Shown here in pieces: positions 63,099 through 64,000 of a stretch of 64,000 bases of DNA. Location: assembly GCF_041248615.1 (NCBI RefSeq), contig NZ_CP158426.1; one strand, given 5' to 3'. The translations under genes and the position numbers were made by a program. This DNA is from Escherichia coli. Lineage in GTDB: Bacteria; Pseudomonadota; Gammaproteobacteria; Enterobacterales; Enterobacteriaceae. A model generated the notes under the pieces. The model was not told where the DNA came from and did no database searches. It worked only from the letters and a program-made list of their open reading frames with translations. How positions within the stretch are numbered: position 1 is the first letter of the stretch; every line of letters begins with the position of its first letter.

Positions 63099-64000
63099 GT
63101 GCGGATATTACTTCGACCTGTTCTGGTACCGGAACTCGGGCTGGTGGTCCTTAGGCCGGGCCGTGAATCCATGCAAGTATTTCATAACCCTCGAGTGCTG
63201 GTGGAGCCTGAACCGAAAAGCATGCGCGGTCTGCCGTCCGGAGTCGTCCCTGCCGTTCGCCAGCCGCTGGCGGAGGATAAATCATTACTGCCATTTTTCA
63301 GCGATGAGCGGGTGATTCGTGCTGCTGGCGGCGCTGGGGCACTGTCTGACTGGCTGTTGCGTCATGTCAAATCCTGCCAGTGGCCTCATGGTGACTATCA
63401 TCACAGTGAAATCGTCATACATCGTTACGGTACCGGCGCGATGGTGTTGTGCTGGCACTGCGACAACCAGTTGCGTGACCAGACATCCGAATCACTCGGG
63501 CAACTTGCTCATCAAAACCTGTCAGCATGGATGATTGACGTCATACGCCATGCAATGAATGGCACGCAGGAGCGGGAATTGTCGCTGGCTGAATTATCCT
63601 GGTGGGCGGTCTGCAATCAGGTGGCGGACGCGCTTCCGGAGGCAGTATTACGTCGTTCTCTGGGGTTACGTGCGGAAAAAATCCGCTCCTTGTACCGCGA
63701 AAGCGACATCGTACTGGGAGAGCAGACCGCCACCAGCATACTGAAGCAGCGCACAAAAAATCTTGCGCCGTTGCCTCATGCCCACCAGCAAAACCCGCCA
63801 CAGGAAAAGACGGTGGTCAGCATTGCCGTTGATCCGGAGTCACCGGCTCAGTATCTCCAGCGCCAGAAACCACAACGGGAAGAGATGCCTGTATACACGC
63901 GTTGGGTAAAAACGCAGAAATGCATGACGTGCGGTAATCAGGCAGATGATCCGCATCACATCATTGGTCATGGACTGGGAGGGATGGGAACAAAGGCTGA
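63099..64000 (+). CDS. DUF968-like prophage protein, 3' end beyond window
   Basis: Open frame from GTG 63099 (GGAGG 5 nt upstream) to window end, not in ORF track; Cys/His motifs CQWPHGDYHH, CWHCDNQ, CMTCGNQADDPHH. Confidence 0.45.
   Translation, partial: MRILLRPVLVPELGLVVLRPGRESMQVFHNPRVLVEPEPKSMRGLPSGVVPAVRQPLAEDKSLLPFFSDERVIRAAGGAGALSDWLLRHVKSCQWPHGDYHHSEIVIHRYGTGAMVLCWHCDNQLRDQTSESLGQLAHQNLSAWMIDVIRHAMNGTQERELSLAELSWWAVCNQVADALPEAVLRRSLGLRAEKIRSLYRESDIVLGEQTATSILKQRTKNLAPLPHAHQQNPPQEKTVVSIAVDPESPAQYLQRQKPQREEMPVYTRWVKTQKCMTCGNQADDPHHIIGHGLGGMGTKA

Follow-up and report, generated by a model that had tools for sequence, protein, structure and literature searches.

DUF968 proteins and DUF1364 proteins such as YbcO have been classified together as group 7 of the His-Me finger superfamily, with a proposed role in recombination; rusA and Q are among the genes that lie beside theirs, and proteins fused to Erf, Rad52 or RusA have been described (PMC5714182, PMC4118853). 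Lambda NinG/Rap, a structure-specific endonuclease of the nin region that belongs to group 24 of this superfamily, is encoded between the replication genes and Q (PMC5714182). Gp16 of the Staphylococcus phage phiNM1 is an early-expressed, dsDNA-binding nickase that is stimulated by RecA, and its zinc ligands (C148, C181 and H184) and catalytic residues (H157, H185 and H189) have been probed by mutagenesis (PMC12817073). Host toxicity and a bias towards the lytic cycle have been described for both Gp16 and the P1 protein Ref (PMC4713147, PMC12817073). Our literature search on DUF968 and on its Escherichia coli K-12 representative, YdfU, returned no functional study, and a search by the name YbcO returned only superconductor papers and none on the protein.

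We analyzed a DUF968 gene at the edge of a 64,000-base stretch of E. coli DNA (hereafter the window, meaning the whole of this stretch). A frame that begins with GTG at position 63099 on the plus strand stays open for 300 codons, through base 64000, the window end. The initial annotation had described this uninterrupted frame, with GGAGG upstream of its start codon, and reading the window confirmed it; its explanation for the absence of the frame from the ORF track, namely the want of a stop codon, was also correct, because the list omits ORFs that run off the source. The remaining five frames contain 6–16 stops each over the same 902 bases, and the probability of 300 open codons arising by chance is ~5e-6 at the local composition (55.7% G+C). 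The gene and its surroundings in the window are as follows.

~1-49,850: integrative conjugative element at tRNA-Asn (NRZ14408 annotation, Rfam)
50032-50829, minus strand: mtfA (NRZ14408 annotation)
50923-51012: tRNA-Ser (NRZ14408 annotation, Rfam)
62721..62746, plus strand: predicted intrinsic terminator, ACCCGC-TTCG-GCGGGT then TTTGTTTTTT (consensus scan only)
62819..63097, plus strand: upstream 92-aa gene, PHROG 1212, with its stop 1 nt ahead of the DUF968 start
63090..63094, plus strand: Shine-Dalgarno sequence GGAGG, four bases 5' of the GTG and overlapping the end of the upstream gene (read directly)
63099..64000, plus strand: codons 1-300 of 351 of the ydfU-type DUF968/His-Me finger nuclease gene (open frame, PGAP CDS, Pfam, PHROG)

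The missing 3' end was recovered from E. coli NRZ14408 (NZ_LT599825.1), which showed 0 mismatches over all 64,000 bases in a direct comparison and was the single genome matching throughout when the last 25 kb of the window were used for the search. In its RefSeq annotation the full CDS occupies window-equivalent positions 63099-64154 (1056 nt) and encodes a 351-aa "DUF968 domain-containing protein" (WP_024191037.1), so that the window holds the 5' 85% of the gene. The TGA stop lies at window-equivalent positions 64152-64154, 154 bases past the window; the 3' end reads AAA GCA TGA and is followed directly by the ATG of rusA. The initial annotation had allowed for a frameshift just beyond the window, and extension to the stop revealed an intact 351-aa CDS and no frameshift in NRZ14408, the genome that matches at every base. 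The last 1.4 kb of the window are also 100% identical to several complete E. coli chromosomes, and in two genomes with an identical copy of the gene the RefSeq/PGAP annotation has the same GTG start and the same product of 351 aa.

If the frame were open by chance, or belonged to a pseudogene disrupted shortly after the window end, it would not be a functional gene. The window itself lacks a stop codon, and nothing else speaks for such a reading. Against it stand the low chance probability of the frame, the intact CDS in the source-identical genome, a dN/dS of 0.19 overall and 0.155 over the in-window codons when compared to K-12 ydfU, and a 99.7%-identical protein in vB_EcoS-689R5, an induced, plaque-forming E. 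coli phage. The non-gene reading, to which we give next to no credence, is already refuted, and it is virtually certain that this is a real gene of the DUF968/YdfU type. The exact protein has a RefSeq record, Pfam and PHROGs both cover the family, and its assignment to the His-Me fingers has been published; the gene is thus already known. It is an ordinary annotated prophage gene that was dropped from the ORF track at the window edge, and ORFs cut in this way need separate handling.

Three in-frame start candidates were considered: ATG 63027, GTG 63099 and ATG 63171. With GTG 63099 as the start, the first residue of the protein aligns with the first residue of homologues that are only 27-50% identical, with the consensus M-[RK]-x-L-L, and position 1 of the PHROG 96 profile likewise aligns to residue 1. 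K-12 ydfU carries the identical GGATCTGGAGGTAAC-GTG, and the phage SfII gene, whose product is 47% identical, starts with a GTG that has GAGG before it. ATG 63027, from which the 375-aa database versions start, was rejected: it lacks a Shine-Dalgarno sequence, it would create a 71-nt overlap with the upstream gene, and the extension is missing from diverged homologues. The TAA of the upstream gene, at 63095-63097, is one base ahead of GTG 63099. Because the Shine-Dalgarno sequence overlaps the end of this small gene, the DUF968 gene is probably translationally coupled to it.

The assignment to a DUF968-type prophage protein, made earlier from the sequence alone, was borne out by the homology searches. 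Pfam DUF968 (PF06147) matched the full protein with 213.4 bits (E 2.9e-63; residues 160-343 against model positions 1-169 of 171), and the in-window part alone scored 144.8 bits (E 3.4e-42), the gathering threshold being 27.8 bits. PHROG 96, "HNH endonuclease", matched residues 1-348 along the whole of its profile (positions 1-334 of 334; 7.8e-165). Pfam HNHc_6 (PF16784) matched the HNH part only, at residues 266-327 against model positions 119-184 of 204 (31.9 bits, E 1.3e-7; gathering threshold, 26.6 bits), and Pfam HNH_5 and HNH gave weak scores. The Pfam models RecA_dep_nuc (PF16786), NinG (PF05766) and DUF1364 (PF07102) gave no match at E <= 1, and NCBIfam has no model for the DUF968 protein or for its two upstream neighbours. 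When the PDB was searched with a profile from the full-length alignment, no meaningful match was obtained; the sole hits of a single-sequence search were YbcO (E 0.37) and McrA (E 1.1), and a Foldseek search of the PDB with the predicted structure returned nothing significant. The coding region can be divided as follows.

63099..63668, plus strand: N-terminal region, residues 1-190, a predicted compact domain with a small beta subdomain, helices and a beta-hairpin/helix unit
63375..63476, plus strand: N-terminal Cys/His module, residues 93-126, a putative structural zinc site on a beta-beta-alpha unit (C93, H101, C118, C121, W119, D122)
63576..64000, plus strand: start of the Pfam DUF968 match, which continues past the window end (Pfam search)
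63780..63821, plus strand: residues 228-241, predicted to be disordered (pLDDT < 50) and to link the N-terminal part to the nuclease module; a mosaic junction follows shortly after
63894..64000, plus strand: C-terminal His-Me finger (HNH) module, from residue 266 onwards, of which the first half, with C275-x-x-C278 and H286-H287, is in the window

The C-terminal ~85 residues form the nuclease module, a complete His-Me finger (HNH). Its remaining residues, D302, C309-x-x-C312, H313 and H317, are encoded past the window. The Cys/His clusters noticed in the initial annotation are real and comprise, within the window, C93, H101/H102, C118 and C121 together with C275, C278, H286 and H287. In the module, C275, C278, C309 and C312 make up a predicted Cys4 structural zinc site, and H286, H287, D302, H313 and H317 make up the catalytic and metal set. 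Taken together, the zinc-ligand and catalytic positions are conserved in 26-34 of 34 sequences. H286/H287, D302, H313 and H317 are conserved in 30-34 of the 34 homologues and are jointly lost in 4, in which the histidine set is gone as a group while the cysteines are kept; such a joint loss with retention of the cysteines is how an active site behaves. The beta-hairpin and helix of the predicted module superpose on solved His-Me members, the closest fold being that of P1 Ref; further fold matches included Cap5, McrA, IscB and the GVE2 HNH protein. Since every canonical residue is present in the query, we predict that the YdfU-type protein is likely to be an active nuclease.

The four homologues without catalytic histidines could also be read as a sign that these proteins bind DNA or regulate transcription, with the HNH-like zinc finger serving as a scaffold only. 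Some database records call homologues transcriptional regulator or 'antitermination protein Q' (H18, H24), and the P1 homologue is encoded immediately ahead of the late activator. The 'Q' labels are mis-annotations, because the prophage has a complete Q gene of its own (Pfam 8.3e-92), located two genes after the DUF968 gene, and the query keeps all of its catalytic and metal residues. We consider a non-catalytic protein of this kind very improbable.

To place the predicted nuclease among known proteins, we compared it with Gp16, Ref, YbcO and PdcB, and considered NinG/Rap by its position and superfamily. The HNH module of Gp16 aligned with that of the query by BLASTP (39% over 59 aa, E 2e-8) and by hhalign (94%). 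The zinc ligands C148, C181 and H184 of Gp16 align with C278, C309 and C312 of the query, and its catalytic residues H157, H185 and H189 align with H286/H287 (the position shifts by one residue between the two alignments), H313 and H317. Gp16 is an early phage gene product, and rusA is found in the same early region. Its N-terminus is an Orf/NinB-like domain, which is absent from the query, so that the choice of partner and substrate may differ between the two proteins. Gp16 is the only characterized relative at the family level. The analogies with Ref, NinG and DUF1364 are at the superfamily and fold level, given that the corresponding Pfam models found no match. Ref (PDB 3plw) resembles the query at the profile and fold level only, and it has a disordered, basic 76-residue N-terminus where the query has a predicted folded Cys/His domain. 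YbcO (DUF1364, PDB 3g27) of the prophage DLP12 has 96 aa and is nearly the nuclease module alone, without the ~230-residue N-terminal part. NinG/Rap is alike in position and superfamily only. The P1 protein PdcB ('post-doc') is a full-length, distant homologue, with ~27% identity over 90% of the query. Its gene is directly upstream of lpa, the late-promoter activator gene, parallel to the pre-Q position of the query, but unlike the query it belongs to a plasmid prophage and lies downstream of the phd-doc addiction module.

The two closest characterized relatives, Ref and Gp16, need RecA for efficient cleavage. RecA dependence would therefore be a reasonable extension by analogy with these two proteins; for the query we hold it only tentatively, as the less probable outcome.

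The N-terminal region is conserved and is predicted to be folded, with a pLDDT of 94.8 and a pTM of 0.80 when modelled on its own. Residues 1-159 matched no Pfam family, PHROG 11007 covers residues 2-134, no HNH family was matched by any of 33 homologous N-domains, and a PDB profile search with the N-domain alignment returned no meaningful sequence relative. The region contains a Cys/His module in which C93, C118 and H/C121 are found in 34/34 sequences, W119 in 33/34, and C/H101 and D122 in 32/34 each. In the model these residues are carried by a knuckle, by a tight beta-hairpin spanning 105-118 and by a helix spanning 119-125, with a pLDDT of 94-98 for the hairpin and the helix. Interchange of Cys and His is typical of structural zinc ligands, and it occurs here at two of the four positions. 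We also observed weak HNH-like fold signals in this module. An hhalign comparison between the N- and C-terminal modules, made for internal duplication, was collinear and not significant (P 0.07). We tentatively regard the N-module as zinc-binding and possibly as a degenerate second His-Me finger. If it is one, it is probably non-catalytic, because D122 and a variable residue (R126) take the places that H313 and H317 have in the C-terminal module, and no conserved His is found at the end of strand 1 among the 34 homologues. The conserved, putative zinc-type module is modestly new, as is the direct link between the HNH module of YdfU and the recently characterized RecA-dependent nickase Gp16.

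The element that carries the gene is a lambdoid, Qin-like prophage integrated at tRNA-Ser, beside mtfA. It begins with a frameshifted integrase gene, a RecE-like exonuclease gene, dicB, DicF and ydfC/B/A. These are followed by a divergent repressor/Cro-like pair, a YdaT-family gene, replication genes and an oppositely oriented FRG-domain gene, and then by sok/hokD, a 130-aa ORF, the intrinsic terminator, the 92-aa ORF, DUF968, rusA and Q. Downstream of Q lie four tRNAs, the lysis genes, a small HNH gene beside the terminase and HK97-like structural genes. The terminator is upstream of the 92-aa/DUF968/rusA/Q block, in a position that resembles that of the lambda nin-region terminators preceding Q. 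The 92-aa gene had been considered Rem-like on the grounds of Qin synteny and the label of a phage record, and this assignment was rejected when BLASTP against K-12 Rem showed no similarity. E. coli strain SJC33 is collinear with the window only from ~49,850 onwards.

Only two further genes of the rightward early operon, rusA and Q, follow the DUF968 gene. The order DUF968-rusA-Q recurs unchanged in vB_EcoS-689R5, the order in phage SfII is RusA-KilA-N-DUF968-Q, and that in DLP12 is ybcO-rusA-ylcG-Q. Qin has ydfU-Q, and in P1 the homologue pdcB directly precedes lpa. We conclude that the gene occupies the final part of the early operon, ahead of the late-gene switch.

This fixed position bears on two other roles. 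Homing and packaging are both common roles of phage HNH proteins (PMC12817073), so that a selfish homing endonuclease could be considered, as could a terminase-associated HNH protein needed for cos cleavage when packaging is HK97-like; the head genes of this prophage are HK97-like and its small terminase is of the P27 family. The small terminase gene, however, is directly preceded by a gene for another HNH endonuclease, of 116 aa (locus L011 18739-19089), ~5 kb from the DUF968 gene, which lies in the early region. The DUF968 gene interrupts no gene, intron or intein, and both its fixed synteny in diverse phages and the size of its product, 351 aa with a large conserved N-terminal domain, argue against homing as well as packaging. 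We assign these roles a very small probability.

A role of the prophage nuclease in defence, superinfection exclusion or anti-defence could be suspected because HNH nucleases are common defence effectors and Cap5 and McrA are among the fold matches; nearby accessory genes, including an FRG/PDC-S15 candidate and hok/sok, point in the same direction. None of the 5027 PADLOC defence models matched the DUF968 protein, however, and the gene is co-oriented and coupled within the core early operon, rather than being an oppositely oriented moron, in a position that is conserved across lambdoid phages, Vibrio phages and P1. We therefore regard a defence-related function as quite improbable.

The family is widespread. 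Matches were found in 4532 of 5426 complete E. coli genomes (84%), in up to 9 places per genome, and relatives of the gene are present in Stx phages; yet no experimental study of this very common family was found. This abundance, often in cryptic prophages such as Qin, also bears on whether the protein is a host-directed nuclease like P1 Ref or phiNM1 Gp16, which would mainly damage or stall the host chromosome, suppress replication of the host and bias the phage to lysis, with RecA as its cofactor, rather than act on the recombination intermediates of the phage. The closest fold, Ref, and the closest characterized sequence relative, Gp16, are both host-toxic and pro-lytic (PMC4713147, PMC12817073), and the gene is in an early operon, all of which would fit. 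Strong toxicity is harder to square with such a spread, though repression could explain it; the tight linkage to rusA and the NinG/YbcO position in nin regions are at odds with a host target, and the N-terminal domain is unlike those of Ref and Gp16. Overall, we consider a host-directed role unlikely.

The explanation that accounts best for the evidence as a whole, with somewhat more than an even chance of being right, is that of a delayed-early phage nickase acting on recombination and replication intermediates. The protein would be made after prophage induction or infection and would act as a metal-dependent DNA nickase on the branched or recombinase-bound DNA (D-loops, forks and junctions) of phage replication and recombination. 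It would work beside the RusA resolvase, in the genomic place that is occupied by NinG/Rap in lambda and by YbcO in DLP12, and its N-terminal ~230 residues would serve substrate recognition or partner binding rather than catalysis. The activity, the substrate and the partner of the YdfU-type protein are all matters that we infer. That it acts on recombination or replication intermediates, taken as a claim by itself, could equally well prove right or wrong. The synteny with rusA is not universal, as K-12 Qin shows.

A bolder version, which we think possible but rather doubtful, is that of a tandem His-Me finger protein. Its N-terminal finger (C93, C/H101, C118, H/C121, D122) would stem from an ancient internal duplication and would still bind zinc but no longer catalyse; by recognising branched or RecA-coated DNA, or by mediating dimerisation, it would direct the active C-terminal finger. 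The protein would be a partner-dependent nickase of the Ref/Gp16 kind and the functional replacement of NinG/Rap in very many E. coli prophages. The testable hypothesis offered by the nickase explanation is an active HNH nickase that is related to Ref and Gp16, is co-transcribed with RusA and carries an unclassified, putative zinc-binding N-terminal domain. If true, it would assign a function to the K-12 y-gene ydfU and to P1 pdcB, and would add no new kind of system.

Finally, we compared the gene with K-12 ydfU (b1560, cryptic prophage Qin) along its length. The two products share 80% identity over 348 aligned residues with 1 gap (349 aa in K-12, 351 aa here), and the genes have the same GTG and Shine-Dalgarno sequence, the same two-module layout and the same position ahead of Q and downstream of hokD. 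They differ in that Qin has ydfU-Q without an adjacent rusA, whereas rusA lies between the two genes in the query prophage, and in that the C-terminal third is much more diverged; C312 of the query is H in YdfU. dS relative to K-12 ydfU was 0.5 ahead of codon 235 and 1.9 past it, and this higher C-terminal divergence indicates a mosaic exchange near codon 250. A mosaic (recombination) junction was located near CDS nt 748 (window ~63846; ~codon 250), and many genomes match nt 1-748 only. Compared to the SfII gene, dN/dS was ~0.25. In some homologues the N-terminal part is joined to tail-tip J, tail-fibre, portal or capsid fragments (P0146, P0176, P0177, P0127, P0158 and others). We rejected these as functional fusions; such odd architectures resemble what deletions in decayed prophages or chimeric assembly would produce.

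The DUF968 gene, which encodes a predicted HNH nuclease of the YdfU type, contains a mosaic junction.

~63846 (nt ~748 of the CDS), mosaic junction in the DUF968 gene

Many E. coli genomes matched nt 1–748 of the CDS alone, at 86–93% identity, and dS relative to ydfU of K-12 was about 0.5 for codons 1–235 and 1.9 from codon 236 to the end. Because the junction falls directly past a predicted disordered linker (residues 228–241), the HNH module seems to have been swapped as a cassette together with rusA.

Public protein sets contain chimeras (P0146, P0176, P0177, P0127, P0158 and P0228) in which the first 150–300 residues of this DUF968 protein run on into part of a tail-tip J, tail-fibre, portal or major-capsid protein. 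Most likely they arose through large deletions as prophages decayed, or else are artefacts of assembly, and such entries make DUF968 look richer in "domain architectures" than it is. In some phage GenBank records (LR597642.1 and KF030445.1), the DUF968 homologue is named "antitermination protein Q", a label that was probably taken by mistake from the adjacent gene.

Upstream of the DUF968 gene, the prophage carries accessory genes and a predicted strong intrinsic terminator.

59702–61036, − strand, gene for a 444-aa FRG-domain protein, between the replication genes and hokD
61662–61836, + strand, sok (Rfam, 111.7 bits)
61831–61986, + strand, hokD CDS
62721–62746, + strand, predicted intrinsic terminator with a GC stem of 6 bp, a TTCG loop and a run of T

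The FRG-domain gene is oriented opposite to the early operon of the prophage, and residues 166–440 of its product strongly matched PDC-S15, a candidate defence family in PADLOC (E = 7e-99); it looks like a candidate defence "moron", that is, an accessory gene borne by the prophage. The hok/sok type I toxin-antitoxin locus in the nin region is complete (61662–61986), and the order hokD ... DUF968 is common to this prophage and to Qin, a cryptic prophage of K-12. The terminator separates a 130-aa ORF from the block comprising a 92-aa ORF, DUF968, rusA and Q, an arrangement that may be likened to that of lambda, where nin-region terminators make Q expression dependent on antitermination.

Beyond the window end, the locus of NRZ14408 (NZ_LT599825.1), a genome identical to the window over all 64,000 bases, continues as follows, in its own coordinates.

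15401–15710, tRNA genes for Ile, Lys, Thr and Gly (four in all), located between Q and holin
18739–19089, small HNH endonuclease distinct from the DUF968 protein, followed directly by a P27-family small terminase

The latter is the usual HK97-type packaging HNH.

The prophage also carries an integrase gene and a DicF sRNA.

51040–52090, − strand, prophage integrase, adjoining tRNA-Ser (50923–51012)
55438–55489, − strand, full-length DicF sRNA (Rfam, 76.7 bits)

DicF sits between homologues of ydfC and dicB, and this immunity-side region (dicB, DicF, ydfA/B/C) is therefore Qin-like. Since the annotation of both identical genomes marks the integrase as frameshifted, the prophage may be incapable of excising by its own means, though its lytic genes appear intact.

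Most of the window is occupied by an integrative conjugative element of low GC content (37–52%); its gene assignments come from the annotation of NRZ14408.

~1–49850, integrative conjugative element
390–6380, cargo: ComEC-like gene, "ABC-three component system" genes and AAA ATPase
8413–10522, cargo: UbiX/UbiD
20343–23002, MobC and coupling protein
~24064–36040, VirB-type T4SS
48423–49694, element integrase
49856–49931, − strand, tRNA-Asn, insertion site of the element

Further cargo includes ArdC, two porins and an ABC importer. In other strains, such as SJC33, which is collinear with the window only from ~49,850 onwards, unrelated DNA is found at the same tRNA-Asn.
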